From Psammoneis japonica (Eukaryota): a stretch of DNA of 64,000 nt. A program made the position numbers and the translations under genes. The stretch spans positions 1-64,000 of the forward strand of contig QPGO01000168.1 in assembly GCA_008632985.1 (NCBI GenBank), written 5' to 3'. Positions 3,839 through 64,000 of the stretch are shown here, one piece after another (within the stretch, counting starts at the first letter, position 1; the number at the start of each line of letters is the position of its first letter). Under the pieces are notes generated by a model. It worked only from the letters and a program-made list of their open reading frames with translations. It made no database searches and was not told where the DNA came from.

Positions 3839-6800
3839 ATGACAACGACAAGCAGAAGCAACGAACTCGAGAGCCTCACTGCTAGTACGGTGGGTTCTGG
3901 TAGTACGAAAAAGACAAACACTAATTCGTCTTCCTCTCTGCTGACTGCTATATTTGACTCGAGCCATTCCAAGCAACGATCATGTTGTGTATTGGGAGTC
4001 GTATGTATTGCTTTCTTATTGATTTGGAATGCTTCTGGCAGTCTAGAAGAGGAAAACAACAATGGAAGTGGAGCAGCAGTAGTACTACCACCCATTGCAG
4101 ATTCTACTACTACTACTACTACTACTACTACCGACGTTGTGGTGCAAGACAACAACAATGACGTTGCTGATACTACTCCATCTACATCAACACCCTCTCC
4201 ACCGTCCAGAAAAAGACGGATTTTCGCATTCCCCCTCTTGCAAATCCCGATCCCTTTCATTTACCAATTGACAATGCCACAAGAGACGCCATTACAAATT
4301 CCTTTGGTCAATGGCATTTTTGGGATGGTGATGCCGCATTGCGTCCTTCTACTGATTTCATGCAAAAGTATCCCAACAATGATGTTCCCGGATCTGCCTT
4401 TCCAAACAATGCATGGCAAGTCGATGCCGTCTATGTCAATCATTTTTTAAACGATGCTGATTTGTTGTTATCCAGAAGTATGGAAGCGATTTTTAGTGAA
4501 TACGGTCATGGTAAACCATTGTCGCCCAAACTCATGATGGAACGCATGCACATGTTTCATGTCGAGGAAATTTCTTCTTCCGAACAAAACCCTCCCGCCA
4601 ACTTTGGACGACGTGGAACACGGGATACCGGTGGTTGGACCACCCAACGAGTCAACAAGGATTGATTCGACGATTGTTGCATGCCATGATGACCAAGGAT
4701 ACATTTACAGTCGTTTTGGCGGGACATTCGGCTGCGGCCGGAGCGGGGTGAGTGTATAGTGAGAGAATGAGGAGATGTATATATTTTGTTGTTTTGTATG
4801 CTTCACTTACTAACACTCACATTCTCTCTTTCTACTACTGCTACTGCAATTTTCTCAAACAGCAATCATTTTCGTCAATCGTACATTCATCAATTTCATA
4901 AAATTATGTTTCCGGTATTTGCACGATTGGGTGTGAAATTGGTGACACGCAACATTAGTCAGGGTGGTCTTGGTACCATTCAAGGCAGCATGGGCTTTGC
5001 CGGTATTTATGGCAATAATGTGGATTTGGTCATTTGGGATTCAGGCATGACGGAAAATAACAATCCCGAACACGTTGATTTGTTTTTACGACAAGCCTTG
5101 TTGAGTGGTAAACGTGTTCCCGTCGTTTGGGGTGGATTGTTTCCACTCTTGAAGAAATTACATGATGAATGTGATGCCGACATTGGTGAACACGGACGAG
5201 GCACCGTGGGACTTGTCGAAACGTGTGAGAATCCGACGAAATTCCATGGGCCGCACGGTACATGAAATGTTGTCCCGATCATGCCGATGTTTGCAAGGAG
5301 GAATCACGCTTTAATTCCGTGTGTTGGTTGGATCGAAAGAATGATAATGTTGAACCACGCGCAACACAATTACCACACCCCAAATCTCAAGTCAAATGGC
5401 ATCCCGGATGGCGTGCACATCAATTGGAGGGACGGGTTCTTGCTTTTTTGTTATTAAAAGCACTCCAATCGGCTGTCAATACATGGAGTGAAGCTACCAT
5501 GAGTGGACAACCACTCGATGATTCGTATTGGCATGTTACGGATTATTATGAGAATATTCGACAAAAAGTACAAGCTTGCAAGAGGGAGAGTGTTTGAAGA
5601 TTGCACCCAAATTACCCAAACGCATGTGCCATGTGCCCATGAATGTGAGTTTATGGTATAATGAGAATTGTATTATTATTGCTAATGTGTGTTTTGATTA
5701 CTTTACATGGCTCTCTCACACACACTCTCTCTCTTGTTTCAAAACAGGGCCGGACACAATACACTCCACGTGCCAATTTTGACGAGTCGGGTATTACCAA
5801 TCTCATCAAACCGGCATCGAATGGATATCTACCCAAAAATGAAAAAGTGGCACTCTATGACGGACCCGATGTGCATTTACCCAGCAATGATGTCCCGGAA
5901 GGACAAGTGAGTTTTGGCCATTGTCATGAATCGAAGACGAAGACGACAATTGGGTAGTGGTGATGAAGACGATAAGGACGACGACGACAAGGATGAAAAC
6001 GAGCAAAAGGAGGACAAAGAGGATGGTAATGGCGGCGACGGAAAAGAAGAAGAAAAGGCACAAGACGACGAGGAGCAAAACGAGGAGAACAAGAAGAACG
6101 ATTCTCCAAAAGCTCAACAATTGCGTGGAAGCAACAGCAATGGTGACGAAAATGATGCGATTGTTCCCGGCTTGGGTTGGCAAGTCTTTGATGAACCTCA
6201 GGGTACGTGTGACGGAGAATACTTGTCGGTTTGTGGTCGTTCCACGGACAATCCGTGTATTTTGGAAGGACGACACGATGCACGGGGTGCCGTGATTGGC
6301 AATTCCTTGTCGGGGTGGCTCGTTTTGAATATCCCTAAAATCCAACACGGTATTGTCGTCATTAAGCTTCACACGTGGCATTATGAATCGGAAAATACAA
6401 TTACCGAGGGATGGGTGGGTGTGAATAATTCTGGTAAACAAGAACAACAAGACAAGGACGTGAAGAAGGAGGAGAAGAATGCCGACAAGCAAGATGACAA
6501 GGAAGATACCGCGAGTGGCGATGGAAAACAAGATGAAAAAGAAAACAAGCCGGAGGAAGCAAAGTCGAACGAGAAGGACAAGGACGGCGTCAAACAGGAA
6601 CAAGTTGAAAGAAAGCAAGATGACGACGACAAGAAGGAAGACGAGCGGCGCCACTTGATGCGCAGCTACGCTACACCCGACTTGCCCGATACCTTTTACT
6701 TTGATTATGCCATTCAGGGACAAATCACCTCCTCAACAAGACTGAGTTTCTAGAGCAAAAGCAGCAAATTCAACGCGTCGTGGAAACCTTGACCTTGATG

Positions 6801-8010: not shown

Positions 8011-8131
8011 CGATGACGGCACTTCGTCATGTGACTCGACAGGTGCAGACGTGCTGACGCGTTCCAGCCCCAGGTGGGAGCTCGCAGTGCTGACGTGTGA
8101 CAAAAACAATTTTTGTCATCCGTCGCATGTT

Positions 8132-8410
8132 TCACACGTAGATTTCTATGTGTGACATTTAAAAAAAATTGTCCAGACTCGCTGTTTTGCAAAGCCCCAG
8201 ACATTTTACATGACAAATTTATAGAAACAACAATGCGCCAGTTGCATTCTTCAATGTCTGAAGAATGTAACTGGCCAAGTAAAAAATGATGTGCTTCAAT
8301 CATGTGCGAGTTTGTGCGTTCGCAAAATTGCCTCATTTTCTGTTGGCGATCATTGACATTTTAATTGCCGTGTGATTTTACTGCGGAGCTCGCACGTAGA
8401 AGTCTACGGG
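8132..8410. repeat. TA-retaining island bounded by two CGTAGA-N2-TCTA(C/T)G palindromes; possible DNA-transposon end
   Basis: tcacacgtagatttctatgtgtga (8132-8155) and cgtagaagtctacg (8395-8408); the interior has normal TA content while both flanks are eroded. Confidence 0.5.
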
Positions 8411-8666
8411 CCCAATGTCACACGGATTCCCACCCACATCTGGAACGCGTCTGCTGCAGAGCCAGGAGCCAGAGCCCGCCATCAATGCCAACACGAGACA
8501 AGCAATTCTGAATGCCGAATCAAATGTCCGACACTGATGATTGCATTTTGAAAATCAGTTGGGTCACATTAATCACGAGGACACAAAAATGTTCGTGTGA
8601 TGGCATTCAACCAGTCCTTTTCAATTTTTCAAATTTTAAATTTTCATCGCGTGCATTGAGTGCAAT

Positions 8667-9105
8667 GTGCAGCTGCTGACAAGAGCCAATGCATCACGGC
8701 GACATGTTGCAGCCTTTAAATGTCACAAAGGGCGTGACAAAATAACCTTTTGTCTGCATGCATGCTGCGTTGTGAATTCACAGCGGAGTGGTTCATCGCA
8801 ACCATTGGGCAGGAGGCCAGGGGCTCGAAACCCTGAGTGGGAGTTGTCTGCAGCAACGTTGATCACTGTCGAACGCGTGAAACTCTGTGCAGTTCTGCAC
8901 GTTCCTTCGCACGTACCCACACTGTTCCGCCAAAACCGTGCAGCGTCAGCACACGTCAGCAAAGAGCCGCATGGACACGCGACACATGGGGAGGAGTGCA
9001 GTGCACAGCTGCTGACAAGAGTCAATGTATCACGGCGACGTGTTGCAGCCTTTAAATGTCACAAAGGGCGTGACAAAATAACCTTTTGTCTGCATGCACA
9101 CTGCA
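8667..9105 (+). repeat. ~100-bp direct repeat (8667-8768 and 9003-9105)
   Basis: Both copies read agctgctgacaagag.caatg.atcacggcgac.tgttgcagcctttaaatgtcacaaagggcgtgacaaaataaccttttgtctgcatgca. Confidence 0.9.
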
Positions 9106-9108
9106 TAA

Positions 9109-9941
9109 GAGCATCTTCGCCAGTGAGTCGTAAACATAAACATAAACATAGGAACACAACCTAAAAGGACAAGCGAACAGACTGCCCCGTATAAGTTTAC
9201 GATTCTGCACGCGACCATCATTTTCAGTCGATCACAATCGTAGCACATTCGGCCGATGGTTGGGCAGACGTTGAGGTAACAACCAACTCCATACACGTAT
9301 ATCCATAACTAGGAACTAACTGATGGTAGGACGGACTTGTTGAATTTTACATGACGCCATGGCGGCTTTGAACGCAGTATACGACACAAATCACAGTCTA
9401 TTCAAAGATATGTCGACGTCTATCAATAGAGAATAATTCATATTATATGTCTATGTGTTACTATGTTGTGAAAGTCATTCTACATCGCGAAAACAAGCGA
9501 AATGTTATCACACGATTTATGCCTTATTCTCTTCTGACCCCATAAACCCCCCATATGTCGGTTCTCCTCCCATATCTCGATGCGGCCGTATGTAAGTTCA
9601 TAAGATACGACAAACTGTTAATTGTTGGGCCTCTGTAAGGTCCTCTCATCAAGAAAGCGTCGATTGTCGTTTCGTCATGGTGACACGCACTTTCTACTGG
9701 ATTTCTACACCCTTTTTGTACCAGAAATTTACGATTTTCGTTTACGATTTTGGAGGTGGATCGTATCCAAGGCCTGATTTGCGATTCACTTTCATGTGAA
9801 TCGTACGTAAATTCGAAAAGGGTTATTAGCGCAAAAAATATGTTTTCGATCCACCAAAATGATGATTTTTTGTGAATCTCATTCGTATCGGAAGACGTAC
9901 GGACATGTGTTTGTGTTTACGACTCACTGGCGAAGATGCTC
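9109..9941. mobile_element. Non-autonomous PIF/Harbinger (Tourist-like) element, 833 bp
   Basis: Perfect 28-bp TIR GAGCATCTTCGCCAGTGAGTCGTAAACA (9109-9136 / 9914-9941); TAA target-site duplication (9106-9108, 9942-9944); a GAGCATCT start with TAA/TTA TSD is typical of PIF/Harbinger; no transposase ORF. Confidence 0.85.
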
Positions 9942-10413
9942 TAAGGGGCGAATCGAGGGAGGATCGAAGCCGCTGCCATTGACGCCACTCGAAACAGCTG
10001 CGCTCTAACCTTGTTTTGAAATTTTCATTGCTGTCCATTTGGGGTTAAGCAAGGGATCGAAGCCGCTCTGACGCCACTCGAAACACCTTTGCTTTGGCTC
10101 TGCTCCATTGGCGGACAGGCACCACCTCCAAAGCACGTGTGCCGTGTTCTTGGAACCAATGCTGTGACCACACAGTGCATCCATGTCGGAGTCAGATTGG
10201 TGTTTTCAAGGCCTTGAAAAAATCTTGACATTGGCAAAATGCAAACCAAAACCGGAGGGATTGAAAGGCATCACCAAAATGACAGGACAATCTTCAAAAG
10301 ATCGCTCTTCTCGACTGATGCTCTCGGCAGCAGAGCAGATGATCAAAATGTCTCCTTTAAAAAAAGACACCTGTGCATTCACACTGTTAAATTTCTGTGT
10401 CAAGCATGTGTTG

Positions 10414-11180
10414 TCAGCTGCAACTTAGTTGCCAATCCTTGTGTGCAAGCGCGCCTTCCATCTGGCCAAAGTCAGGGCGTGTGAGACTGGCTCCAAACTG
10501 ACCATCATGAGCAAGGTGATCAGCTGTTTCAAGCTTGGAAAAAGTTGCACTCATTCCCTTGGCATTTGGATTTTTTAATTTTTCCTGATGCAACTCAACC
10601 AGAATCTGCCCAACCTTGACCACACACCCCATTCTGTTTTTTGCAAAAAGCCCAACTCAAAATTCTTTCACATCCACCTTGAGACAGCATGTGTGAGAAT
10701 GACCAAGCTCCTTCACAACTGTGGCAATGGAGTTGATTGGAAAGTGAGCTGTGCTCAGTTTGTTTTAGCTGCAAAAGCCACAGTCTCCATGACAGATGCC
10801 ACAAATGCCTTCCCATCCACTGGCTCTCTGATGTTTGGATCAAACGCATGAATCTCACATCCTGATCTGACTGGTTGAACTCGTTCCTCAAAGTCAGGTT
10901 CACTGTTTGATCCCACACTGTGTGCAGTGCAGCCATTGCTGCTGCAGTGCTCATTTTTGACTCCACAAACAATCTTGGTGTTTTGGTCTGCTTGTTGCTT
11001 GTGGACTTGAGCAAGGCCACATGCCCACCTGCCTTCAACTGTGTTGAGCAACACAAGGAGATGGTGACTTTTTAAAATCCCAAAAGCAAGGAAGGCTGAA
11101 ACATGCACCAAATGGCTTTGTTCAGCAAGATTCCAAACTGCTGGCCTTCGCTGTGCATGTTTGACAACCATGCCCATCAC
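10414..11180 (-). pseudogene. Eroded Methyltransf_22 (METTL24/FkbM-like) SAM methyltransferase pseudogene
   Basis: KIVCG...CTAHSVGSNSEPDFEE...CEIHAFDP, then LKVDVKEFE and GQILVELH in successive frames; family pattern CxVYSxGS...FE...CEIHxFDP...LKxDxE...QILxExH. Confidence 0.7.
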
Positions 11181-12943
11181 TCTGCTCTGCAGTCTTTTGT
11201 GAGCACTCTCAAGCAGCCAACACAGACAGTCAGGATGTGATGGTGCATGTCTGCTGAGACAAGGTTTCTCCCGCTGACAGCGCCAGCATCATTTGGTTGC
11301 TCAAACCCTGTCTCAGCACACATTGCTGCATTCTGACTTAGAGAACTGGACCTTGCCACACCTGCTGCCTTGTCTGGCCACACAGCATTCCATGCAGTTT
11401 CTCTGATTTGCCTTCACCAAACTCCTGGGTGCACAAAAAGCACCTTTGGATCATTTCTTTGTCCTTTGTCTGTGTTGGCTGCTTCAGCCATGATTTCATT
11501 TTGCAGGTGGCATTGTTTGCCTTGAGGCATTTCAAATGTGCCAAGGCCTGTCTGGGATTTTGGTGTGTCAGAGCAAGCAAAAGCGTCCTTGTCAAAAAAT
11601 GTCAAAAGCCTTTTGTGCCCTCCTCCAAGCCAGCTCAGGTGCTGTCTCTGTCCTTCAATCTGCTGTGGCAATCATGCACTGCAAATTAAAAATGTTGTGC
11701 ATGAAAACAGATCCATGCATTTTCTCCCCACACTGCATTGAACATGTCATGAGGAAGAAATCGTCTGTGCCAAATGCATTGTGAACATGTTTTCCTCCTC
11801 TCTGTGGGCAACGGCCCTGCCCCAAAAGCTGTGCCTGCTGCTCACATCTGCACCCAATGCAAATTTTTTGAGCCCACATCAAAACAAGTGTGGACACTCC
11901 ATTCAGCCAGATTCAATGTGAACTGCCAACAGGGTGGGCTTGCTCTCCAGCTTGAACAGCGACAATTGCAACAATGCCTTTGTGGGTTTTTGAAGATCAG
12001 CAAAGCAATGCGTTGCTGTGATGCAGCATTGTGCAATGTGCTTGGTTGTTTTGAAGTTCATCATGCCAACGGCCATTGCTGCCAGAGGGCATTGAAGCAA
12101 TTGCATGTGTCATCCAAATCTGCATCTTTGCAACTTGATTTTTTCCAACAAGCAGTGCCAAAGCTGTCTCTCATTTCCACACTTCTCCAAAAAAATTTGC
12201 TCTCCATTTGTTGCTGCTTGCAGCACATCTAAAGTGCAGTTTGTTTTGCAAATGAGCTGGCGCTGCAGTGCTTGGTCACAACTGGAGTCATGGCTGCTCT
12301 CAGCGTCATTGCACAGAAATTGTGCAGAAGAAGATTGCCAAAAAAATCATTGTTGGTCTGTCCATCCATCTGTGCTTGAATGGCAACTTCTCAGGAAATC
12401 AACTGAAATGTCATCTGATCAAAAAGGTGTTGCTCTTTGCCACGCAAATCAAGGTGCCTTTGATTGGATGACATTTCAGCCAAGTTTCTGCAAAGTTGTC
12501 AGCTCCAACCACTCTCTTGCATGACACAGTGTGCATTTTCACATGATTTTGCATTTTTCCTCATGCAAAAAAATTGTTGTGATTGATGCGGCATTTTCGA
12601 GTGACTCCTGTTGCACCCACGGAGCCCGCTCTTGTCTGTGGTGACCAGCAGAGCAAATTTCCAGAGATGACACCCCCTTTTCAGCACTCTTTCCAACAGG
12701 AATCATTCGAAAATGTCGCGTGGGTCACAATTGACATTTTGCATGAGGAAAAACACAAAATCGTGCAGAAATGCGCACAATGTCATGCAAGAGAGTGATT
12801 GGAGCCAATGACTTTTCGGGAACTGAACTGAAATGCTGTCTGATTGACGGTGTTGGCCTTCACCATGTGAGTCAAAATGCCATCAATCAGATGGCATTTC
12901 AATTGATTTCCTGAGAAGTTGATGTTCGCACACGGATGGATGG

Positions 12944-13219
12944 TGACAGAAATCGAAGGCAAGTGGCAAGAATTCAAACAATGACTCCTTGCTGCTGTCT
13001 AAACAGCAGATGAGTCTCCGCTCAGAGACCGTCACAGGAGCTGAAAGACGTGCAAGTTGGCACAATCGGGCTGCTGTTGTCATTCTTGTGAGCCTTGTGG
13101 CTCGAAAGCAAACTGCATCGTGCACGAACGCATGGAACTGAAGCACACAAAACTGTGCACGGCAAACTAAACAGCGCGCGACATGTCGCACGCACCTGAA
13201 TCCTGTTCAAATCCTGCCA
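12944..13219 (-). repeat. 3' LTR of the copia element
   Basis: Aligns without gaps to 19730-20005 (~22 substitutions by hand count); preceded on the minus strand by purine tract GGGGAG (13220-13225). Confidence 0.95.
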
Positions 13220-16200
13220 CTCCCCAGTTTGCTTGAGGAGTCACAGAAACAGATTCGACTTCGGATGGAATGAAGTTCCAGAACATGAGGGGGCGGAGAA
13301 GGTCCCAGACTTGGGAGCAACCCCAATGCTTGCTGAGAATGTCAGCAGGGTTGCGGGAGCCTTCGATGAAGTGGAGCTCAAGGCAGCCAAAGGCAATTGC
13401 CTCGTGCACACGGTGGAACGACAGTGCGGTGTGTCGCTTGTGCAACTTGGAGTGCGGGATGGTGGCACTGTCTACAACCAACTTGTTGTCACTGAACATG
13501 CAACTGATGTCACGGATCGGGACGCCAAGGCAGCGCAGGGTGATGCGCAGGTCGACAATTTGCTCGACACAAGTCCTTGCGGCAACAAATTCAGACCCGC
13601 AGGTCACAGTCTCCATGGTGGCTTGCTTCTTAGAGAACCAATCAGCCGGGAATTTGTTGAGGAAGTGGAGCATTCCCATGACAGAGCGTCCGGTGAGCAT
13701 GCAATGGTGCAAGTTTGCATCGACGCAGTGGGTGGCAGTGACGAACTTGCCAAGGGGCGGTGGAGCATCCTTTGGGATCATCTCTTCTGCTTCGCCACAC
13801 ACGGAATGCATCCATTCATGGGCTGGAGCAGGGAGATCCAAACAGTCGGGCTCTTCTGTGCGAACGCGGAGAGTGCCATGTCGCATCTTGGAGAGGCACC
13901 CACAGACACGTTTGGCACGATCCAAGTGGCCTTGACGGGGCACAGCTCGGAAGCTAGAGAGTGACATGACGGCCGTGGCAATGTCAATTCGACCAAGGGA
14001 CACTGCCCATTGGAGTGAACCAACAAGAGACTGGAACTGGTGAATGCCATCGGGCCCCAGCAGTTCGGAAGTGTCCAGTTCGGGGTGGTCACCCTTCTCC
14101 AGAGGTGACAAGGCATTGGTGGCAGGTTTCTCCCCAAACAGTCGTGTGCAGCTGTCGACCATGTGCTCGATGTACTTGCGCGGAGACAGGCACAAGGTGC
14201 CGTCAGGATCCCGGGAAAAGTCACAGCCCAGATGGAACTCAATCGGTCCTGCACCCTTGAGCTTGAACTTGCACTTTTCCGTGAGAGCATCGACGAAAGA
14301 TTGAGGGTCCTTCATGGCAATGGCGAGGTCATCCACACAAACGGCAATGCATTCGCAGTGGTCGCCGTTCCCGCGCATCCAAATGTCGGGTTCGGCGCTG
14401 CAGGGGAAGAAACCTTCAGCTCGCAGGCAGTCGGCAAAGCACTCGTGCCAGCGGAGGCCGGAGCTGCGCAGTCCACACAGGGCCTTGTGGATGACAAGGA
14501 TGTGGCCTTCGAGTTTGCCAAATTCGGGTCCGGCTGCAATGTAGAGCTTCTCCTTGGTGGTGGCTTCAAGGCAGGCATTGCCAATGTCGGTGGCCCATGT
14601 CTCCAACTCGTTGAGTTCGGCCAGGAAAATCATCAGCCGAAGGCCACGGAGGGAGACTGCTCCGGAGCAGACACTGTCGATGGGTACGTCCGTGAGGTGC
14701 CCATCGGCTGTGAGTCGTGCCTTGTGGCAACCGTCGTGTTTCACGTCGTGCACCAGGTGCACTCGGATCTTCTTGTGTCCCGCAGGAGGAGTGGAAGACT
14801 CGGAGGGCCCGCAGTCATGGAAGACTTTGTATTCCTTGAGTTGGTCCATCTCGAGATTAGTTGCGTCTCCCCATTTGTGGTTGCCGTTGCGTTCGTCTAG
14901 TGACATGGCGTGTTTGCAGTTCCGGGGAACTTTGCATCCGCACTTGCAGCGAGGTGCAGTGCGGAAGGAGTGAAGCTTGGCTTGGTTGGCCATGCGGAAT
15001 GGCTTCTTCTGGCGCCTTGCGATGGTGCGGAACCGCTTCCAGCCATCAGTGTCGAGAAGTCTGTTCTCTCGTGCATAGATGGCGCAGGTGACAGGGTTGT
15101 CCATGGCGATGATGGCAAGAGGCTCGGACGTGATCTTCCCACTTTCCCATTCAAGCATGATGTTGTAGCTTGAGCCTTTCCAGGTTGGGTCATGAGGCTT
15201 CAGAGGTCCTTCGTGTGACACAATGCGTCGAAATTTCCAAACAGCAGTGTCTTCATCTTCTTGCTCAATGTGATTCATGATGTCGTTGCAGGCCAGGACT
15301 TCCTCGCATTCGTCGTTGTTGACAGAGCAGACGAACTCAGTGAGCTCGGGATTGCCGTTCACTTTCCATTCGTGGTCTTCGACGGCCTTGACGATGCGAG
15401 CTCTGTGGCGTTGTCCATCCTCTTGTGGCTGCATGAGGAAGGTGCGTCCGATGATGTCTTGCGGATCAAAAACTGGCATCTTGGGTGTCCTGATCTCCCC
15501 ATCAGGTGAATCAATGGGGTTGTCATCATGGCGAGATTTGATGATGGGTTCAGGTGGCTCCCCATCAGGAGGATCAAGATGCAGGTTTCAAACGGCAGGA
15601 TCAGTGGCAGCGGATCGTACGTTGGACCAGCAGAGGATCTTCTGAGTCTCATCAGAGAGAATCTTGAAGGTCATCTGGTGGCCGACGTGCTCAGCAATGC
15701 CAACAAAGCGTCCACACAACTCACGGGATTCGGACGGCCAATCGGAGTCATCGAGGTGGAAGTGCACGGGTTCCCACCAGTGAAAGCGAAGCAATGGGCT
15801 GATGTCCGGGGTGGAGCCAGTGAGAGTCTCGAGGGGCGTGCGCCAGTGGAGACGTGGGGACGCTGTGTGGTTGAGCATGAAGCACACGTGCATGAGCGCC
15901 AGCAGCCATGTGTGGGCAGGCAAACCGAAACAATCCATGACAGTGTTCGCCATGCGCTTCACGGTCTGGCATCAACGTTTGGCAAAGTTTTGGTGTTGCT
16001 GGTGAGGCTCACTTTGCCAGCTGGAGACAAAGAGGGCTCGCAGGATCCCGAGCACCTTGTTGCTGATCTCAACTTGAGCACGGTCGCCGATGAGTTTGGA
16101 TGGAGCACCACGCTCATGGATCTGATCCTCGAGTGTGTTGACAAACTCTTTGTCCGTTTTGGTGCCGTAGACGTCAGTGATGGTAGACTCGGTGCCAACA

Positions 16201-18799
16201 AACAGCTGGGCGCTGGTGCAACCAGAGTCGACGGCTGGGGTGTCAGCACAAACGGTGTCAGTGGCGACAGGCTCGTTGCGGCGGTGCACATTAAGGGTGG
16301 GGTTGGGCGATTTGTGGGCCTTCCCAAGGTGTGCACCGGTGGGCATGCGGGCGCACTGCGTGGTGCAGTCGAAAGTGCGACGAACCGCATCGGCAGGTTG
16401 GAAGCCAAAGTGAGGCCGAAGAGACTCGAAGGGGGGGTCCTTGGGCTGCACAGTGTGCTCCGGGGGCGGAACGTTGTCGTCCTTGGGGTCAATCGCGTGT
16501 GGATGACACTCGTAGAACACGTCGTCGTTCGGAATGAGATGGTCATCGAGGGCGGACACGTGATCGGCAGACAAGGAGGCAGACATGATGGTCTTGTTGA
16601 CAACGACACGATGACGGCAGTTGCCGCATTCGTCAAACAGGTTGGCAGTGGGATCGTCCTGCAGGTCAGAGATCACGTCACACCACTGGTCGTCGTCAGT
16701 GACAGAGTGATCGAGGACGGAAGGATCCCACCATTCGGCGTCAGTGCAAGGTCGCATGGCAACATGAGGCAGGCCGCCCTTGATGTCAATTGGGATGACA
16801 CAGCCATCAGGGGTGGCAATGCATTGCAAGCCGTTGGGCACCTTGACAGAGCGATCATTGACATCCTGTTTGTGCCATTCGAGCTGGCCGCAGGAATGAA
16901 TGGTCTTGCCCTTTCCCATGCATGCATGCTGATGGAGGATGGCGATGACGGGACCACGCTGTGTCTCAATGACGGCACCAGCAGTGACAACAGGTGTGTC
17001 CACCAATTGATGTCGTCAATGCCCTGAACGTCGACTTGGCGAGAGGTGTGTGCAATGACGCGAACATCATCGCCAGCAATGCCGCTGTTGGCCCCACGAT
17101 CAACTGGAGCACCAGTGCATGTGGAGCGATGAGCGGAGGCAGAGCAAATGACATTGTGGTCATTGATGCGGCGGCAAGTGTGGCCGTTAAGTTCTGTGTC
17201 ATCGGTGGGAGCGGGTGAGGTAGAGGGAGTGGCGGATGGCCCCGGTCGACCAGCGTTGGGGGCTTGGTTAGGAGACAACAGGCGTTGCAGATCACCGGGT
17301 GGCAGTGGCTTGCACTTGGTGAGGTGCGCCAGGATGGGATTGTCTGAAGTGGCATCCACATTTGGAGCGGGGTCACCAGAGTCAGCAGGAGTCATGTTGG
17401 ACAAGTTGACATCACCGTCACTCCCAAGGTGTTGGTCATGAAGGTTGGCCGTAATGGACTCATGGCAGTTGCTGGCTCGCGGGTTACGGGGAGGCGGATG
17501 AGAATGCTCAAGGATGATCGCCTTGGAGGAATGGGGCAACGAATCCCAAATCCGTTGGTGGTCGGGAGGGAGACATTTCCATTGGTCACCGGCAAGGCTG
17601 GGACCGCGGGTGCAGGCAGCATCAGCCTGAAGGACGTCAATGTTGATGTCACAGAACACATCATCGGACGGTTCCTCGGAGCAGACGTTGTGTGCGCATG
17701 TGGCGCGTCGGGGAGCTCGAGGTGTCGTCTTGGGTTGAAATGTGCTGTCGCACTGAGCCGCCGCGGAGAGGAGCAAGCCACAACATTGATCGCATGTGAG
17801 GCTCTTGCCACTCTGCGTGCGATGCTGATCAGCTTGGTTCTTGACAGCACGGAGTTCCTCGACAGGATGTGCAGCATTCTCGAGCATGATGCGCTTCTGT
17901 CCTTCAGAGAAGTGGTCACTGGCCGGGATGAGTGCCTCACACTTGCGCAACTGATCTTGCCAATGAAGGATGAACCCGTGGGTCGGACCTTTCCAAGCAC
18001 CATCACCAAGACGTGCGGTGGTGAGGCACGTGAGCAAGGTGGAGGACTCGATGGATGCACGGGTGGAGGCAAGCGCACACTTGGACAAGGCGTGGCAGAC
18101 GGTCTGGGCATCAGAAGACCCCACATTTTCGCGAATGAGAGCCTTGCCCTTGTCGGTGAGAAGGATGCATTCGAAGATGGTGAACATGCACTTTTGCTGT
18201 TCAGCAAAGAGCAGTTTGTCTTCGGGGCTGGTCAGTTTGTACGACGAGTCTAGAATGCACTCGATGTCTTGGGCACGGGCTTGTGCCACAAGTGAGGTGT
18301 GCCAAGTGTGCCACTGCTTGTCAGATTTGAGAGCCGTGAAAGCGGTGGGGTCATGCTTGATGCCTCACTTGAATTCTCGCACCGGGTCGCGTGCCTTGGT
18401 CGGGTTGGTGACATGCGGAGGTGCGAGGGGCGAGCTGCCGATGGACACAGAAGACATGCAGTCGGGGCTGAGGCGGTGGGCAAGGAACTCCTCATGCGCG
18501 AACAACGAGGAGTCATTGGCAACGTCAAGACCTTCATGAGCTTTGACAATGTACAGACTGGTTGGAGCTGCCAACATGTTCTCATGGCCGCGGGGCAAAG
18601 GGATCACATCAGTGCCACCACCGCACTCAAGTGAGTCGATTTGGGACGGTGTGAACGTGAACAGCTCTTGATGCAAGTCCGCACCGTCGTGGGTCAAAGC
18701 CAAACGAAGAGGGCTCCCAGCACCTTGGGCAAGCACGGTTCCAACAACGTGCTCGAAACCATCGGTTTGTTGCTGAAGAGTGAGAACCATGGCAGACAA
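13220..18799 (-). pseudogene. Copia gag-pol pseudogene with stops, frameshifts and systematic Tyr->Cys/His changes
   Basis: Gag FK*GIKHDP...AQARAQD; protease VDRGANSGIAG; integrase VATDTVCADTPAVD...SEPHQQHQN; RT HKARL, DIGNACLEA, KALCGLRSSG, CVDDL; RNaseH CVDANLHHCMLTGRS, ETVTCGSEFVAAR, NPADILSKHW. Confidence 0.93.
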
Positions 18800-19729
18800 A
18801 AGTGGTGTCAGGACAAGCGATTCTTGTTGGGACGCGAAGGTGGACTTGAAACTTGGGTGAGAATAGACTTGACTTGAAGTGGACTTGACTTGAAATCTTG
18901 AACTACCTTAAAATCAGAAGTCGCCGGTCTGTGCTGTCCCGTTCGTTGTCAAGTGCTAAATTTCCTGTCCGGTCCGCAGAGTTGTGCCGGCACGTCCAAA
19001 CTCGCAGCTGGCGGCACTTTGGGTTGCTTGCAAGCGGAGCAGCGGGTTGCAAACCCCTGCAGGTGAGCTGACCAGAGGTGGACAAGACCCCCGAACCGTT
19101 CTTGTTTTGTGTCGGTTGGATTTCCCGATCAGGCTGGCCAGTTGACGCAGGCGTCAGGCACTGTGGACGAATGAACAAACGCGGGAAAAACACCCTTGCC
19201 CCAACGCAGGCTGCAATCACGGCCACTTGCTCTCACAGTCGTCCTCGTGGACCTGGTGGAACTGTGGAGCACCAGCAGTCTGGGGCAGATCAGGTGCAAT
19301 GGACTCGGTGTGCTTGCAGAGTGGCAGCAAAGCCGCAGTCCAAAGAGTGGTTGCAAGTTCTTGGCCGTGAAGATGTGTGCACACTCATGTCTTCAGCGAC
19401 AAAGATCCTTGAATGTGTGGGGTTCTTGACCGTTAACCGTTGAATGGGCACATCAAGGGATGAGGATCAAGGATGGACTTGGACATGACCGTTGAATGCA
19501 TGTCTTCAGTGACAAAAGGCAGTGTGATCAATCCAGACACACAGCAGTGAGGAGACTTGACGGTGACGTTAAATTCCTGCCGATGCCTGGCATTGAATGC
19601 GCGCAGACTTGCCGATGTACATGCAGAATGCACACGGAGGTCCGCGCAGAATTGAAACAGCGTCGTCGGTAAATCAACGACGATGATGGCGGTTGCTCAA
19701 TGGGTTGACAATGAGCAAGACTGTCAATC

Positions 19730-20005
19730 TGACAGAAATTGAAGGCAAATGGCAAGAAGTCAAACAATGACTCCTTGCTGCTGTCTAAACAGCAGATGAG
19801 TCTCCGCTCAGAGACCGTCACAGGAGCCGAAAGACGTGCAAGTCGGCACAATCGGGCAACTGTTGTTGTTCTTGTGAGCCTTGTGGCTCGAAAGCAAACT
19901 GCATCGCACGCGAACGCGCGGAACTAAAGCACACAAAACTGTGCGCGGTAAACTAAATTGCGCGCGACATGTCGCGCGCACCTAAATCCTGTTCAAATCC
20001 TGTCA
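19730..20005 (-). repeat. 5' LTR of the copia element
   Basis: TGACAG...CTGTCA terminal inverted repeats; contains a 22-bp perfect palindrome at 19959-19980. Confidence 0.95.
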
Positions 20006-20836: not shown

Positions 20837-23628
20837 ATGAAGGTATCGTTCGGTGCCGTCTGCATCCTGCTAGGGTGGATGGCAGGCTATGGTCTCGCCG
20901 ATGGCGTAGACGCGGCAGCACCATCCTCGGTGTCCGGTCTGGAGGACACCATGACTTCAGCAGAAGAAATCAAAACCAAATCAAGTCTTCGAGGCAAAAC
21001 CATAACTGACTTTCGATCAAATGAAATGATTGATAATTCGGATCAGGAGCACCGAAGGGCTCAAATCGAGGCAGACAAGTTTTGGCGTGGACATCTTAAC
21101 GGGATCTCAGGACCGCCCACCTCATCGCCGACTCCTGCTCCTAAGAAGAAGCTCCATCCCGTCCTACCGAACATTTTCAATAAGAGAGGCTCCAAAAGGA
21201 CAAGAGGAAAGAAGGGACGAGGAGGTAGAGGAGGAAAGCGCAAAGGAAAGCGCAAAAAGAAGCGTAAAGGAAGGCGCGGCAAGAGGAGCGAAGGAGGAAG
21301 GCGTGGCAAGAGGAGCAAAGGCAGTGGCGAGAGCGGAAAGAGCAGTAGCAGGTCTGTTCCCATTCGAGATTTTACCAGAGAGTCCAATCGCAGAAAAGAA
21401 AGAGGAAAGGGTCGAGAGCTTGCTTTCAAGCCAAAGGTCGTTATTGATCTTGGATCTGCGGTTGAACACGAGTCCGTTAATTCCGAGCTCCCGAAACTGA
21501 AGGCCGAAGGAGACAAGTCCGTCGGCGTTTCCACTACTCCCGAAACAAGCTCAGAGACAAAGCTTGATATTGAATCTGCCTTAGAAGCAAGTAACTCACA
21601 AGAGAAGTTGGACAAGAGTATGTTACTTCCGAGCTCTCGAAGCTGAAGGCTGAAGGAGACAAGTCCGTCGAAGTTTTCACGTCTTCCGAAAGCAACTCCG
21701 GCACAAAGCTTGGTCTTGAATCTGAGTTAGAAGCAAGTAACTCACAGGAGAAGGATGAACAAGAGCTGGTTACTGTCGAGCTCTCGAAATTGAAGGCTGA
21801 AGGCGACAAGTCTGTCGAAGTTTCCCCGCTTGCCCAAACAAGCTCAGAGACGATTCTTGAGCCGGCGAAACTCCCTTGGATAACTTCTGAGGAGGCTACG
21901 TCGTCTCCCCTTCCTATATACTGGATCAACCTGGAGCAATCGACAGAGCGACGTGCCTTGATGGAGGAAAGGTTTTCAAATCTAACTTCTTTTGGACACG
22001 AGTTCAAGGCAACTCGCATTCCAGCGGTGAATCAGGAACAAGTTCGGAAACCGTTAGCCACTGGAAGATTCAAGGCAAAAGGGGTTAAATTTGTGCAACC
22101 GAGCGCAGAGACGTTGGACTCGCAGAAGCACCTTCAGAAAGAGTACACAGATATTGAAGCAGCATCTCTTTTGTCACACCTGAATGCAATCTTGACAGCA
22201 TATAGAGCTGGACATGAGTACGCTTTAATTATGGAAGACGATGCTCTCATAAACTCATACTTTCTCTCAAATTGGAAAGATTATATGGAGCTTGCTCCTT
22301 CGGACTGGAACGTTCTCCAGTGGTCTACAAGCAATGAGGCAGTGCAGATGGAGACCAAGAATATGGCTAAGGATCCGTGGGTAGCTTGGGTCCCAGACTA
22401 CTTTGGGTGCACTTGTTACATGATACGTCGTCAAGGAATGCACGAGATACTTAGACATTCTTTCTCTGAAGATATTCATGGAGAGCCATTGTGGCATGTC
22501 AGTGAGTCCGAGTTGGTGGTGGCAGACGAAGTCGTCTACTACCTCGCAAAGCAATCCTACACTTCGACATTCCCGTGGATTGGGACAGGCGCAATGGTCA
22601 GCACTCATGATGATGGACATCAAACATTCGCAATCGATCTTGCAAAACCGATGACACGGCCAGAAAGGGTCTTAGTTGTGACGAGTAGTCGCATAAAAGA
22701 TGAAGCCTCTATCTCCGCAGAATTGAAAAGGTTGACAATGGATGCCGAATCCTTATCCAAGTGGCATCCAACTTCTACGTGGATTGTCAATGCAGTCGTG
22801 GTAAATGAAGATCTTAAAGCAGCATTTGTTGACAAGGCATCCGGGCTGCCCTCTAGCATCCACCTTCGCATCCGTGTCAATGACAAGACGTTCAACAAAT
22901 TTGCACTAATTGAGAATGCTCTCAAAGAAGAATTCATTCTGTACGACTACGTTCTCTTCAAGGACAATGACATGCGATTGGCAGGTTTCCCGTGGAACAC
23001 ATTCATGGAGCGCAAAGGCGACACGATTGTCTCTGGTCCTCTCCATGAAGCTGTCGACGAGTCCCTTATACGACATGATCTTATACCAAAGAGACAGTGG
23101 TATCAGTTCCACGAAGCGCAGTTGTGGAGGAAAGACAAGGTTCCAGAATTTGTGGAAATTTCCCCCATTCCAACTATGTATATCGAGCAGGCCTTTGTGT
23201 TGATGAGGGGAGACTTTGCTCACTGGTACTTTGATCAAATGTTAACGCCGTGGTTTGTGGAGCAGCCAACGGATTGGGGCATTGACAAGATGTGGTGCGG
23301 GGCTGCTAAATCCTTTCGGCCGGAATTACGTGCCTGTGAGATTGTTCCACTTGTCGCTGTACATGAGGATACGAGGCAAATTGCAGTTGGAGAAGAGTAT
23401 TTGATACAAGGTCGATCTGTGATTCAGCGTTTCCGGGAAAATGAGCGTTTCCGTGATTGGCTGGACGCCATCATTGGTTGGGAAACGTTTATTGAGGGCA
23501 ACGCCGACCTCTATGATGTTCAATCTCGATGCAGACGCCTTTTAAAGTCCGATATAGCCAATCTGACAAAGTGCGCTGAGCTTGTCGTCGACGGACAGAT
23601 AGACATGCAGGATCTTGTCTTTACGTAA
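20837..23628 (+). CDS. Secreted glycosyltransferase family 25-like protein with a basic K/R/G segment, 49-aa repeats and an uncharacterised C-terminal domain; one 1-nt frameshift near 21612
   Basis: Signal peptide MKVSFGAVCILLGWMAGYGLA; GT25 motifs IYWINLEQSTERR, ASLLSHLNAI, YALIMEDDA, CYMIRRQG. Repeat unit 1 is 146 nt against 147 nt for unit 2, which locates the frameshift. Confidence 0.8.
21485..21860 (+). repeat. ~2.5 copies of a 147-bp coding repeat (ELxKLKAEGDKSV...)
   Basis: Units start gagctc at 21485, 21631 and 21778. Confidence 0.9.
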
Positions 23629-24350: not shown

Positions 24351-24370
24351 CCCCCCCCCCCCCCCCCCNC
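24351..24370. other. Poly-C run containing an N (24369); possible assembly join
   Basis: Direct observation. Confidence 0.7.
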
Positions 24371-27300: not shown

Positions 27301-27380
27301 CGCGAACCGAGACAAAATCAGGGATTGCTGTGGAATTGGCGCTGCAAAACAATGAAATCCACGCCTGCTGCATTTTTTCA

Positions 27381-30010
27381 TCAAGTGCGTGGCTTTGTGC
27401 TTGCCAGACAGAACATCGAAATGCCTGCTGCAATGTTCAGAACAAATGCCACAATGGCGCGCACCTGTCCAACACCCCATGCGCAATCAACCTGGCACTG
27501 GTTTGTGGTCCGGGATGTCAGCATCGAGAGACTCATTGCTCCCACTAAAAAACAGAGACTGGCAACCATCCTCAAAGCCCATCTGGAAAAGCTCCGGCAG
27601 CTGAGGGTTGGGCTCAGCACCAAAGCAGCAACTCCAGTGGCAATGGAAGTGATGGCAATGATTCTTCTGCATTTAAACGGAGCATCCTCATGGTCCGGGG
27701 CCCTGCTCCGCTAAAAAGAAAGGCAACGGCAGCCAAACAGCACGCCCACATCTTCATCGGCAGCATCCAGAAAGCAGGTTGTCAGTGCAAGACAAGTGAG
27801 CAATGCTCCCAGAAAGCCGAAAAAGGGAGGGAATGCAGTTTTGCCACCATGCGGGCAAATTGCACCATTGAGGAGAAGGAGAATTTTACCAGTGAGAACA
27901 GCCAAGCTTGCGACGGGGCAAAAGCACAACATCTTTTAACAACATCATCTCTTCGGCGACGAACACGTGCCATTTGAGCTCGGAAGCTTCGCGTGGCTTT
28001 GCACTTGCCAGACAGAACATCGAAGCACCCGTGGCGACATTCAGAGCCAATGCCACAATGGCATGCACCTGTCCAACACCCCAAATGCAATCACCCTGGC
28101 ACTGGTTTGTGGACCGAGCTGTCAGCATCAAAAGACTCATTGCTCCCACTGCAAAAAAGAGACTTCCGACCAGCCTCAAAGCCCACTTGGGAAAGCTCCG
28201 GCAGCTGAGAGTTAGGCTCAGCACTGACGCAGCAACTCCAGCGGCAATGGAAGTGATGGCAACAATTCTTCCGCATTTGAACAGAGCATCCTCATGGTCC
28301 GGGGCATGGCTGCACTCGAAAGCAAGGCAACGGCAGCCAAACAGCATGCCCACATCTTCATTGGCAGCATCCAGAAAGCAGGTTGTCAGTGCAAGATGAG
28401 TGAACAATGCTCCAAGAAAACCGAAAATGGGAGGGATTGCAGTTTTGTCACCACATGGGCAAATTGTGCCACAACAAGGAGAAGGAGAATTTTGCCAGTG
28501 AGAAGTCAAGCTTGCAACGGGGCGAAAGCACAACATCTTTTGAGCAATGTCATCTCTTTGGCAAAGAACACGTGCTGTTTGAACTCGGAAGCTGTGCGTG
28601 GCTTTGCACTTGCCAGACAGAACATCAAAATGCCTGCTGCAATGTTCAGAACAAATGCCACAACAGCGTGCACCTGTCCAACACCCCAGACGCAATCACC
28701 CTGGCACTGGTTTGTGGTGCAAGCTGTCAGCATCGAAAGACTCATTGCTCCCACTGCACAAAAGAGACTGGCAACCATCCTCAAAGCCCACTTGGGAAAG
28801 CTCCGGCAGCTGAGAGTTAGGCTCAGCACTGACGCAGCAACTCCAGCGGCAATGGAAGTGATGGCAATGATTCTTCCACATTTGAACAGAGCATCCTCAT
28901 GGTCCGGGGCACGGCTGCGCTCGAAAGCAAGGCAACGGCAGCCAAACAGCATGCCCACATCTTCATTGGCGGCATCCAGAAAGCAGGTTGTCAGTGCAAG
29001 ATGAGTGAACAATGCTCCGAGAAAACCGAAAATGGGAGGGATTGCAGTTTTGTCACCACATGGGCAAATTGTGCCACAACAAGGAGAAGGAGAATTTTGC
29101 CAGTGAGAAGTCAAGCTTGCAACGGGGCGAAAGCACAACATCTTTTGAGCAATGTCATCTCTTTGGCAAAGAACATGTGCTGTTTGAACTCGGAAGCTGT
29201 GCGTGGCTTTGCACTTGCCAGACAGAACATCAAAATGCCTGCTGCAATGTTCAGAACAAATGCCACAACAGCGTGCACCTGTCCAACACCCCAGATGCAA
29301 TCACCCTGGCACTGGTTTGTGGTGCAAGCTGTCAGCATCGAAAGACTCATTGCTCCCACTGCACAAAAGAGACTGGCAACCATCCTCAAAGCCCACCCAG
29401 GAAAGCTCCAGCAGCTGAGGGTTGGGCTCAGCACTGACGCAGCAACTCCAGTGGCAATGGAAGTGATGGCAATGATTCTTCTGCGTTTAAACGGAGCATC
29501 CTCACAGTCCGGGGCATGGCTGCACTCGAAAGCAAGGCAACGGCAGCCAAACAGCACACCCACATCTTCATCGGCGGCATCCAGAAAGCAGGTTGTCAGT
29601 GCAAGACAAGTGAACAATGCACCGAGAGAGCCAAAAATGGGAGGGGTTGCAGTTTTGTCACCACATGGGCAAATTGCACTGTGACAGGGAGAAGGAGAAT
29701 CTTGCCAGTGAGAACAGTCAAGCTTGTGACGGGGCAAAAGCACAACATCTTTTGAGCACATCATCTCTTCGGCAAGGAACACGCACCATTTGAGCTCGGA
29801 AGCTGGCACTGTCTTTGGTTCTTCGTCAACAGTTGCTGATTCCAAGTGCCTCGGCCTTGTTTGTCCTTGCTCAATTGTCAGAAGGTCAACATCTTCGAAT
29901 GACTTGCATGCTTGTGGATCCTTTGGCTTCGTTTCTTCTTCATCTGCTTGCGAACTTGTCTGCATTTGTGGTGACGATGCGAGACGGCAGAGCATTTCCT
30001 CATCAGGCAT
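27381..30010 (-). pseudogene. Eroded multi-pass membrane-protein gene whose TM-encoding part forms the 605-bp tandem unit
   Basis: Unique hydrophilic N-terminus (MPDEEML...ATVDEEPKT) followed by repeated hydrophobic segments (PIFGFLGALFT, IIAITSIAAGVAASVLS, ALRMVASLF, AIVAFVLNIAAG) and a CQGDCxWG loop; no Tyr. Confidence 0.5.
27385..29803. repeat. Four tandem copies of a ~605-bp unit
   Basis: tttga(g/a)ctcggaagct recurs near 27973, 28578, 29183 and 29789; ORF pairs 28407/29012 and 28294/28899 are nearly identical. Confidence 0.92.
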
Positions 30011-48133: not shown

Positions 48134-49600
48134 CTACAATGCAGCTTTTCCGTGTTGGGTGATGCGATTAATTTGATTTGTTGGCTTCACAACTGGATCC
48201 ACAGGAGAACAAGCCGAGATGCTAATGTTCACATTCAAATCGGTGAGCTTTCCTTCTACTCGTTCATTTTGTTTCTCTTCCTCGTGCACTGCCACTTCAG
48301 TGCTCTCTTCCTTCGCCATGGCTTCCTTGACCATGCCATGGTAGGCAGCATCAATGGGACGACTGTCTTGGGCAACGTCCGCCCAACCGATTGGAGAATC
48401 CTTTGGGATATCTTGTAGAAGAACCTTGCCATCGGCGAGGCCAGACGGAAGCAGCTCTTCTTCACGGACAACGGGAGTGTTTTCACAAATCCCGTAATGA
48501 GTGAATCCACCAAGGCCGTCCAATGTCTCTCCAGCTTTGAGGTCTCTCTTGGCAATGGCAATGACTTCAACCTTGAAGTCATCTAGCGCATCGACGGTTC
48601 CGTCATCGTAATCTACCAAACGCGCAATCGAAAATGGCAGCTCTAAAAAAAGCAAGTGGTACGGAACATAGAAGCTGTAAATGGGCCCATTTCCCATTTT
48701 TGCATATGAAAGGAATCTCTTAGAGACCACGTCATCCGTGGTGGCAAAGACGAATACCCCGGGACCGGGCTTTGCTCCGACAACCATCTCAACGATACCA
48801 CCGTGTTTCTTGAGTTCTTCAAAGTCATAGCGGTCTTTCAAATCATCAATGTGTCCTTCGTATTCGAGAGAGATCATTCCTCGCTTGGCAACCTCCATCC
48901 CCGTTGCGTTGGCAGTCGAGGCTTGCTCCAGCGCCACCTTTGTTCCGTCTGTAAAAGACGTAACCATCTCCACGGTAAGACAGTACTTGTCCGCCCAAAC
49001 CTGTTGTTCTTTGGGAGTGCGATGCTTGTTCAAGAAGCCTTTAATGTTTCCACAGACCAAAGGTGTGAACCCCATCGCCTTGACTTGACGATACAAGTTC
49101 AGAGTAACTCCCGGTTGATCTCCATCTCCCAGCGTGTACCTGGTGTTGTACTTGCGAGCGATTTTCTGCAAAAACGGCCCCATGGTAGCATCCAACTCGG
49201 CGCTAAAGGAAACAACCTTCTTACCGGCCTTTAAGGCAGCAAGAGTCCATTCAAAAGCCGCATGGATCGAGCCCGTCATATCCACCACCACGTCAATTTC
49301 GGAACTGATCCAGAGACAATCAGCGGATGTGGCAACACAAGCAACACCGTTTGCAATTGCCTCATCAACTTGCACACCAGCCTCAGCAACGACAATTGTC
49401 TCGTTTTGATAACCCGCTGTCTTGTAACAAACTTCCGCTTTACTCTGAGTGCGATTATAAATTGCCGCCAAGCGCATTCCGGGCACGTGCTTCATTTGGT
49501 TTGCCAAGCCGAGTGCCATTTCTCCAGCACCCAGCATGCCAACCTGGATCAGATTGCCATTGGCTTGTCGCTCTTTTAATTTGGTGTCGATGATGTGCAT
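48134..49600 (-). CDS. NAD(P)-dependent oxidoreductase, homoserine-dehydrogenase-like, with C-terminal SAF domain (COG4091-type); intronless
   Basis: Rossmann VGMLGAGEMALG; GDGDQPG; SFTDGTKVALEQ; FYVPYHL; SAF AKRDLKAGETLDGLGGF...LLPSGLA. Confidence 0.88.
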   Translation of the reverse strand: MHIIDTKLKERQANGNLIQVGMLGAGEMALGLANQMKHVPGMRLAAIYNRTQSKAEVCYKTAGYQNETIVVAEAGVQVDEAIANGVACVATSADCLWISSEIDVVVDMTGSIHAAFEWTLAALKAGKKVVSFSAELDATMGPFLQKIARKYNTRYTLGDGDQPGVTLNLYRQVKAMGFTPLVCGNIKGFLNKHRTPKEQQVWADKYCLTVEMVTSFTDGTKVALEQASTANATGMEVAKRGMISLEYEGHIDDLKDRYDFEELKKHGGIVEMVVGAKPGPGVFVFATTDDVVSKRFLSYAKMGNGPIYSFYVPYHLLFLELPFSIARLVDYDDGTVDALDDFKVEVIAIAKRDLKAGETLDGLGGFTHYGICENTPVVREEELLPSGLADGKVLLQDIPKDSPIGWADVAQDSRPIDAAYHGMVKEAMAKEESTEVAVHEEEKQNERVEGKLTDLNVNISISACSPVDPVVKPTNQINRITQHGKAAL

Positions 49601-63228: not shown

Positions 63229-64000
63229 GGAGACAAATCTGATGAAGACGAGTCCAATGAAAATGAGTCCGATGATGATTGTTGGCTCAGTTTGAGAGAG
63301 TTGCAGCAAGAAAATGTGCACACAGTTGGCACAGCACTCGGTCATTGCACTGCAGATGCAACAAGGAATTGACTTGACCGATGAAATGTTTTTCTCGTTT
63401 AAAATGATGTTTGCAAAAATTGACAAACCAAGGTTTGTGTGGCAATGCAATGACGCATTGGCACATGGCAACAAGGTGGAGGCAGAAATGGTGATGTGGA
63501 CACAGTGAAAAACAGCGCACACAATTCTTGGCAAGTTGTTGCGGCGTTGGTGCACCAAACTTGCAACCAGAGGTTGGCCTGTCATCATGTGACAACAACA
63601 TTTTGCAACATTTTAACAAATTGTCATCACGCAAATCCACACATTTTTGACATTTCGTGCACTCTGATGCGTGTCTTTGTGGCGACTGCATTTGGTGCGT
63701 TTGGCTGGCGGCGACTCAGTTTCTGTGCCTGCGGGGTTTTGAGTGTGTGTCTTCGTTCGAAAAGTGATGCCATGGATTCGGGTGAAGTCTAAAGAAACAA
63801 TTAAGGTGTAGAAATGTGGCACAAACCTACAGCACGACACATGTGTCATCTACCGGCATATGCTGAGGTCAAGAAAACAAAAGAAGAAATGGCGACATAT
63901 TTTTCTCCTATGTGGCAAAACATAGAAATGTGTGACAATAATTGTTTAGATTTAAAGGGCTAAAAGGCGGACGTTGGAGTTGCTCGACAATGTTTAAGTA

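Follow-up and report, generated by a model that had tools for sequence, protein, structure and literature searches.

How does a short transposon come to hold an ordinary complement of TpA dinucleotides when the DNA on either side of it has lost most of its own, and is the process that emptied the surroundings now entering the element? The question is raised by an element of Psammoneis japonica, found in contig QPGO01000168.1 of assembly GCA_008632985.1, of which we analysed positions 1 to 64,000 of the forward strand; this whole stretch of 64,000 nucleotides is called the window throughout. A sequence-only reading of it had described a young Harbinger MITE, unedited inside eroded DNA except at one of its terminal inverted repeats, and had proposed that a time-dependent process starts after insertion and creeps in from the flank. 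It is worth emphasizing that the borders of a transposon are defined independently of base composition, which makes the element a clean internal control for TA erasure.

The element and its ends

The inverted ends of the element (Table 1) leave little to chance: in the window the 28-nt word has exactly two occurrences, one on each strand, with 0 mismatches between them, and there were 0 matches in 100 shuffles. When the two ends are aligned the 28 identical bases are followed by a T/C pair, 5 identical bases, a second T/C pair and 1 further identical base, after which the likeness is lost, so that a terminal inverted repeat extended to 36 nt would contain 2 mismatches. The target-site duplication is the 3 bp TAA, a longer one being excluded by the adjoining bases. 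The longest stop-to-stop frame of the element comes to 130 aa, and the three ORFs of the element that were tested found no match in Pfam at E<=0.1. The TAA duplication, the inverted ends and the lack of a gene together lead to its assignment as a non-autonomous PIF/Harbinger element, with terminal inverted repeats that we take to resemble those of known Harbinger elements. It appears to be an ordinary and recently active MITE, and the assignment made in the sequence-only reading can be kept. Such a cut-and-paste element would have been moved in trans, by a transposase recognising the 28-bp inverted ends and duplicating the TAA target. It shares with the Tourist-like MITEs of the PIF/Harbinger class, mPing for example, a short non-coding body, terminal inverted repeats, a 3-bp TAA/TTA duplication and membership of a multi-copy family (PMC2836001, PMC2213677), but differs from them in size, 833 bp lying at the upper limit for a MITE.

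Relatives were looked for in several places. A blastn search found no second copy within the window, Rfam gave zero family matches anywhere in it, and scans of genome_contigs and viral_contigs with the terminal inverted repeat returned 0 matches. When 22 nt of the repeat were used to scan metagenomes, a single match came up, in a GC-rich, bacterial-looking contig that has only those 22 bases in common with the element.

Table 1. Position of the element, of its parts and of the surrounding features in the window
Feature	Coordinates	Strand	Remarks
Non-autonomous PIF/Harbinger-type element (MITE-like)	9109..9941	+	833 bp; TA o/e 0.82, CG o/e 1.40; without coding capacity
Left target-site duplication copy, TAA, 3 bp	9106..9108	.	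same as 9942-9944
Right target-site duplication copy, TAA	9942..9944	.	same as 9106-9108
Left terminal inverted repeat, 28 nt, perfect	9109..9136	+	
Right terminal inverted repeat, 28 nt, perfect	9914..9941	-	
Subterminal hexamer TAAACA, three times	9131..9148	+	its TAs at 9137 and 9143 (second and third) correspond, in mirror image, to the two changed right-end sites
TA-to-CA change	9157	+	C (CA) in the window, 48 bp from the left end; T (TA) in family contigs, 590/783 depth units
Right subterminal cluster	9907..9913	+	9907 G (family A, 776/945); 9908 T (family G, 906/945); 9913 G (family A, 794/1014)
Left flank, very high-copy repeat	8658..9104	.	two 111-bp units, 8658-8768 and 8994-9104 (93% alike); TA-poor, CG-retaining
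Right flank	9945..10450	.	single-copy by contig depth (34.5), TA-poor; CG falls to near zero beyond about 10500
TA-erased block	10050..19907	.	44 TA in 9858 bp; Copia-type retroelement inside
Copia LTRs	12944-13219 and 19730-20005		
Copia RVT_2 frame	13167-15479	-	E=5e-23

A sharp contrast in composition

The window as a whole is poor in TA (o/e 0.24) and in CG (0.64) and rich in TG and CA (1.53-1.54), and it is made of alternating blocks, some nearly free of TA (0-7 per kb), others with a TA o/e of 0.4-0.8. In this landscape the element, with 58 TA (o/e 0.82) and a CG o/e of 1.40, keeps 4-11 TA per 100 bp, against 0-3 in 8400-9099 and 0-2 in 10000-12099. Its 58 TA for 111 TG+CA are to be set against 8 for 149 in the left flank (8413-9105; P=1.4e-11) and 11 for 674 in the right flank (9945-13000; P=5.9e-34). 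The description of a TA-rich interior between eroded flanks thus has to be divided: the flanks are indeed depleted, while the interior is TA-normal rather than rich. That the element is essentially unmutated within TA-depleted DNA stands, in view of its TA content and of its normal CG.

The immediate neighbourhood is less extreme, as the flanks directly beside the element are only half eroded. Besides the duplicated TAA, the adjoining 80-105 bp have kept 3 TAs to the left of the element and 2 to its right, and a two-state segmentation places 9028-10046 in one single 'normal', that is TA-containing, segment. A protective halo spreading from the element was considered and discarded: the target has 4 other TAs within 100 bp, a number equalled at 16.7% of the 66 TWA sites found over 12.3 kb around it, and the left-flank TAs at 9053 and 9079 recur in the sister unit of the repeat, at 8717 and 8743. 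No strand bias was seen in the flanks, where TG/(TG+CA) is 0.44-0.52.

Other TA-normal islands exist in the window, and no further element with terminal inverted repeats and a target-site duplication was found at 8139-8405, 53588-54209, 3883-4512, 49410-49873 or 63790-63999. An imperfect 27-nt inverted repeat (78%) at 8053-8454 surrounds a 348-bp AT-rich island with 12 TA, lying within TA-poor DNA, and no target duplication was recognised there.

What surrounds the element

The evidence from reads comes from one public sample of three runs, used as contigs with at least 80% likeness to the window; the sample is possibly the assembly's own data, and its library type is not recorded. On the left, the summed contig depth over 8662-9095 reaches 50,000-154,000, against 34.5 for single-copy DNA, which means thousands of copies. 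These copies are polymorphic for TA/CA at 8743, 8914, 9028, 8957 and 8960 (about 40-60%), and also for CG/TG/CA. The left flank is TA-poor yet not CG-poor, with 36 CG in 693 bp, whereas beyond 10500 TA and CG are both lost; since the left-flank repeat lost its TA while keeping its CG, two decay processes can be separated.

On the right, depth is flat at 34.5 over 9964-10211, the single-copy reference, and a 1226-nt contig of the same depth matches 9915-10450 (536 bp) with 0 differences. The TA-poor letters are therefore supported outside the assembly, in a sample that may be the assembly's own. The contrast between element and flanks had been held to argue against a purely regional artefact, and this contig agrees with that view, as does the fact that the break falls exactly at the duplicated TAA. 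At a likeness of at least 80%, 9964-10450 is single-copy yet TA-poor, which would fit either an old repeat diverged past recognition or unique DNA that was also reached by the process.

Further to the right, the Copia-type retroelement provides a record of its own. Its two LTRs differ at 22 of 276 sites (92% alike), and these comprise 8 differences of the CG/TG-CA type, 3 of the TA/TG-CA type and 4 in two adjacent CA-versus-TG pairs. LTRs are identical at insertion, and the present differences at CG and TA sites imply that both kinds of decay were at work on the spot once the retroelement had inserted, at 3 kb from the element. Differences other than CpG and TpA number about 7 in 276 for the pair, and the resulting per-LTR divergence is of the same order as the 1-1.5% or so that separates the element from the abundant form of its family. 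The 3' LTR has kept 5 TA and the 5' LTR 2. Where two adjacent sites read CA in one LTR and TG in the other, the ancestral letters may have been TA or CG, altered on one strand in the first copy and on the opposite strand in the second.

The recognisable genes lie in TA-normal blocks (GT25, a glycosyltransferase 25; three DUF7467 frames; a DRL-type oxidoreductase), the Copia RVT_2 domain in a TA-poor one. Within the window, then, repeat or foreign DNA is hit and genes are spared, though the right flank, single-copy by depth, is also TA-poor.

The context of TA loss

A total of 153 TAs survive in the TA-poor segments of the window, as compared with 628 in the TA-normal segments, and the survivors are far from a random sample. 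TTAA is found 43 times against 38, a 4.6-fold enrichment after scaling; TTAG and CTAA are enriched as well, and CTAG persists. At the other extreme ATAT falls to 0 against 54, with ATAC, GTAT and CTAT nearly absent. Among the surviving contexts GTAC is an exception, at 9 against 38 (ratio 0.97). A log-linear fit expresses the rule as extra loss per strand relative to TAA, in ln units: 2.26 for TAT, 1.02 for TAC and 0.54 for TAG. TpA being self-complementary, the sequence cannot tell whether the A or the T was altered.

This rule has a consequence for the transposon itself. Of the 74 TAs remaining in 12.3 kb, 66 are TWA sites, so that the TAA/TTA target of Harbinger is a spared context. Elements of this kind can therefore keep colonising erased DNA.

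A family of recent copies

Contig depth summed over the element comes to about 820-1700, as compared with 34.5 in the unique right flank, that is, roughly 25-50 copy equivalents. The contig of the unique flank ends 27 nt inside the terminal inverted repeat, and this, together with the 25-50-fold depth of the element, bears on whether the copies are dispersed among different flanks. Two contigs, of depths 508 and 532, are each 2 letters off the window, in 193 and 159 nt respectively, and so many near-identical copies imply that the family was recently active. The copy of the window differs from an abundant form (contig 10 of X2) by 6 substitutions in 503 nt, about 1-1.5%. Conversely, some positions have the window as the less altered party: at 9886 C is found in 598 of 1129 depth units, giving CA where the window has TA, and at 9839 the loose-end consensus reads CATG for the TATG of the window.

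At 9615, 9698 and 9846 the letter of the window is present in no contig of the sample, which leaves parts of this copy unconfirmed by it; errors of the assembly consensus, or a copy that the contigs did not resolve, are possible causes. An empty-site allele was also looked for: 0 of the 7 joints listed skip 9109-9944, the flank contig runs unbroken across 9942 and reaches 27 nt into the terminal inverted repeat, fewer than the 31 letters required, and contigs drop rare variants. The result is no evidence of fixation.

Three changes near the ends

The alignment of the two ends places a G at 9913 and another at 9907 where the mirror arm predicts A, as had been noticed in the sequence-only reading. 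A is taken as ancestral at both sites because the family majority has it (Table 1) and because the mirror positions of the left arm, 9137 and 9143, are TA; comparison of sequences thus presents the two G's as derived, by TA-to-TG change in the window copy. The idea of derivation from A is strengthened in this way, and the alternative of a G at both sites in every copy is contradicted by the contig tables of the one sample, where most of the depth is A. A third change, of the TA-to-CA type, lies 48 bp in from the left end, at 9157, and editing was thus not confined to one terminal inverted repeat, as had been supposed. The restriction to TpA-to-TpG/CpA holds for all three changes, just as the flanks combine low TA with raised TG/CA, CpG decay being superimposed in some blocks. 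In each of the three, the A is followed by T on the changed strand, as compared with 45 of the 122 target A's that stand in a TAT context (P=0.048). We can understand them as genuine first hits of the TpA process, in its most sensitive context. The neighbouring 9908 is a different matter: with T in the window against G in the family it is a transversion, for which the TpA process offers no explanation.

Where these changes were acquired is another question, and here the idea of a process creeping in from the present flank was not supported. The TAs nearest to the flank, at 9131 and 9918, are intact, as are both TAA duplicates. Moreover, the two G's and the C are not private to this copy: among the variants listed, alleles of the window type sum to about 193 (C9157), 169 (G9907) and 220 (G9913) depth units, about five times the single-copy depth of 34.5, from which it follows that the changes were likely inherited, not acquired from this flank. 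Two contigs that join G9907 with G9908 make up about 130 depth units (arithmetic on per-contig mean depths of the variants listed), and the combination G-T-G of the window at 9907, 9908 and 9913 accounts for about 39, roughly one copy. The reader should keep in mind that these sums are of per-contig mean depths, not of aligned copies, among the variants listed. They point to a subfamily of about five copies which probably inherited all three changes from an edited source copy, and which would then predate the present insertion.

The position of the changes within the element deserves attention in its own right. All three are among the 9 of 61 ancestral TA sites situated 48 bp or less from an end (P=0.0023); when contexts are weighted, 14.9% of the hazard falls within that distance (P=0.0033, or 0.022 if the right-hand pair is counted as one event). 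This statistic is post hoc and bears on 3 changes, or 2 events. The intact TAs inside the terminal inverted repeats, 9131 (GTAA) and 9918 (TTAC), are in low-hazard contexts, and their survival needs no special explanation. The clustering at the ends is suggestive, an edge effect somewhere being possible, and it is the sole feature predicted by a process moving inwards from the borders that plain youth does not predict. If the changes were inherited, an edge effect would date from the site of the source copy. The changes have a mirror polarity: on the + strand they are T>C near the left end and A>G near the right one, so that either end shows A>G on its 3'-ending strand. This was examined as a sign of editing of single-stranded tails and set aside: it is forced by the symmetry of the terminal inverted repeats together with the TAT preference, 5 of the 6 near-end TAT targets being on the 3'-ending strand (47-bp cut-off, 9157 left out).

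Weighing the explanations

The reading that we prefer, at a probability of roughly 60%, is that a young MITE landed in repeat DNA whose TA had already been erased, bringing with it three first TpA hits inherited via a small subfamily. The newcomer would have come from a recently active family, estimated at roughly 25-50 copy equivalents, and would have inserted into old repeat DNA after a near-total loss of TA, and further out of CG, to TG/CA. The normal TA and CG content of the element may be seen as a time stamp, the erosion predating the insertion. As to the erosion itself, it would not be a constant property of the region: it is better understood as a post-insertional, context-specific mutation of TpA to TpG/CpA, of the type met in Bigelowiella natans, to which ordinary CpG decay was added. 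The order of events, as we infer it, would have had a source copy acquire the changes at 9157, 9907 and 9913 and a small subfamily inherit them on transposition.

A mutator recruited to the surroundings might instead have worked on the element in place, from its borders inwards, after insertion. We regard this as unlikely, even though the three TA-type differences all lie within 48 bp of an end while the other differences listed (9243, 9304, 9377, 9395, 9615, 9698, 9846, 9908) include no TA type, and even though fungal RIP leaks from repeats into adjacent single-copy DNA (PMC9453070), which makes an analogous spread plausible. Against it stand the intact TAs closest to the flanks (9131, 9918, 9106, 9942), the first two of which are also accounted for by their GTAA and TTAC contexts, the presence in other contigs of the same alleles at about five times the single-copy depth, both G's being apparently linked, the small and post hoc statistic, and the half-eroded state of the immediate flanks themselves. 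In a more general form, to which we give the same low credence, the mutator would be aimed by position and not by target sequence, a mark on mutated DNA spreading tens of bases into insertions and causing both borders to be edited inwards. Should this be true, the three end-proximal TAT changes would be its first step, taken here or at the former site of the source copy. It is somewhat more doubtful still that the element is not young at all and that the mutator simply ignores it, as a short, non-coding DNA that is not transcribed or is unmatched by guide RNAs. The only in-situ clock of the element is indeed the 62 bp of terminal inverted repeats and target-site duplication, all unchanged, and its difference of about 1.2% from the abundant form is not below the per-LTR background divergence of the eroded Copia; but an exempted element should hardly show three signature changes, nor should other copies of the family have CA where the window has TA, as they do at 9886 and 9839.

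Two further accounts would dispense with the process altogether, either in the element or in its surroundings. Ordinary substitutions, or slippage or conversion in the subterminal hexamers, with no tie to the TpA process, could be invoked on the ground that 9907, 9908 and 9913, within 7 bp, turn the family sequence into a perfect tandem of two TGTGTT, that 9908 is a transversion beyond the reach of that process, and that 3 TA-type changes among about 12-13 differences are mildly above the one or so estimated for random substitution. We find this improbable, as all three changes are TA to CA/TG in the TAT context and 9157 belongs to the opposite end, away from any tandem unit. Least credible of all is a TA-poor state created by an error of sequencing or assembly, such as miscalled modified bases around an element without the modification. 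The supporting runs have no recorded library type and are possibly the assembly's own data, which speaks in favour of this view; against it, the contig at a k-mer depth of 34.5 agrees letter for letter with 536 bp of TA-poor flank, the break in composition coincides to the base with the target duplication of the transposon, TA/CA polymorphism runs through the thousands of copies of the left-flank repeat, the pair of LTRs differs at such sites, and the TpA-specific mutations of B. natans are real, measured with Illumina reads (bioRxiv 10.64898/2026.01.13.699255).

Known systems and what the locus adds

The closest counterpart is found in Bigelowiella natans, where, in mutation-accumulation lines, two integrated viral regions gathered 231 mutations, of which 230 were A>G or T>C at TpA (Mettrop et al., bioRxiv 10.64898/2026.01.13.699255). 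In that preprint the TpA activity is described as episodic and an ADAT2-like deaminase is proposed, adenine deamination being presented as a hypothesis, while reverse-transcriptase and DDE domains are reported to be enriched in TpA-poor genes (Mettrop et al., bioRxiv 10.64898/2026.01.13.699255). The likeness is considerable: in both organisms TpA goes to TpG/CpA, in foreign or transposon-like blocks lying beside untouched genes, with low TpA and raised CpA+TpG. The differences are no less instructive. Depletion is deeper here, the TA o/e being 0.0-0.1 over 10-kb blocks as against the 0.45 given for the virus region of B. natans; retrotransposons and high-copy repeats are affected, with CpG decay in some blocks. 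To this we may add the effect of the neighbouring base, which ranks the contexts TAT > TAC > TAG > TAA; neither 'trinucleotide' nor 'context' is a word used in the main text of the B. natans preprint (bioRxiv 10.64898/2026.01.13.699255).

Fungal RIP, in ascomycetes, resembles the present process in making permanent, dinucleotide-specific transitions in repeats, likely as a genome defence, and its leakage is the nearest analogue of a creeping front (PMC9453070). The direction is opposite, however: RIP makes TpA from CpA, whereas TpA is destroyed here, and the enzyme would act on A or T, not on C. Instead of the C-to-T change at CpA that raises TpA in repeats, the repeats have a TA o/e of 0.0-0.1 and raised CA/TG. 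Full-text literature searches for TpA erasure in diatoms found no paper on the subject, bringing up only the B. natans preprint and papers on fungal RIP.

In the reading that we prefer, the erasure of TA would be a historical process that struck particular DNA, and that was largely over, or was not aimed at the newcomer, when the element arrived. With its 25-50 copies or so, one such family could decide between a mutator guided by chromatin position, one guided by target sequence and one guided by age, a choice that the B. natans preprint did not settle.

Other features of the window

Several features lie further from the element. On the - strand, 48134-49600 encodes the intron-less DRL-type NAD(P)H oxidoreductase, of 488 aa, the named relatives of which are all bacterial (Verrucomicrobiota, Bacteroidota), with identities of at most 61-63%; the identity rises to 81-82% for three unnamed proteins. 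The gene may have come from bacteria into a eukaryotic context. A three-unit tandem repeat of 146 bp, at 21461-21899, spans the junction of two long frames beside the glycosyltransferase-25 gene, and a single N, at 24369, marks the place where a TA-normal block meets a TA-poor one. Finally, a tandem array of four units, with a period of 604-605 bp, occupies 27330-29443, within a TA-poor block.
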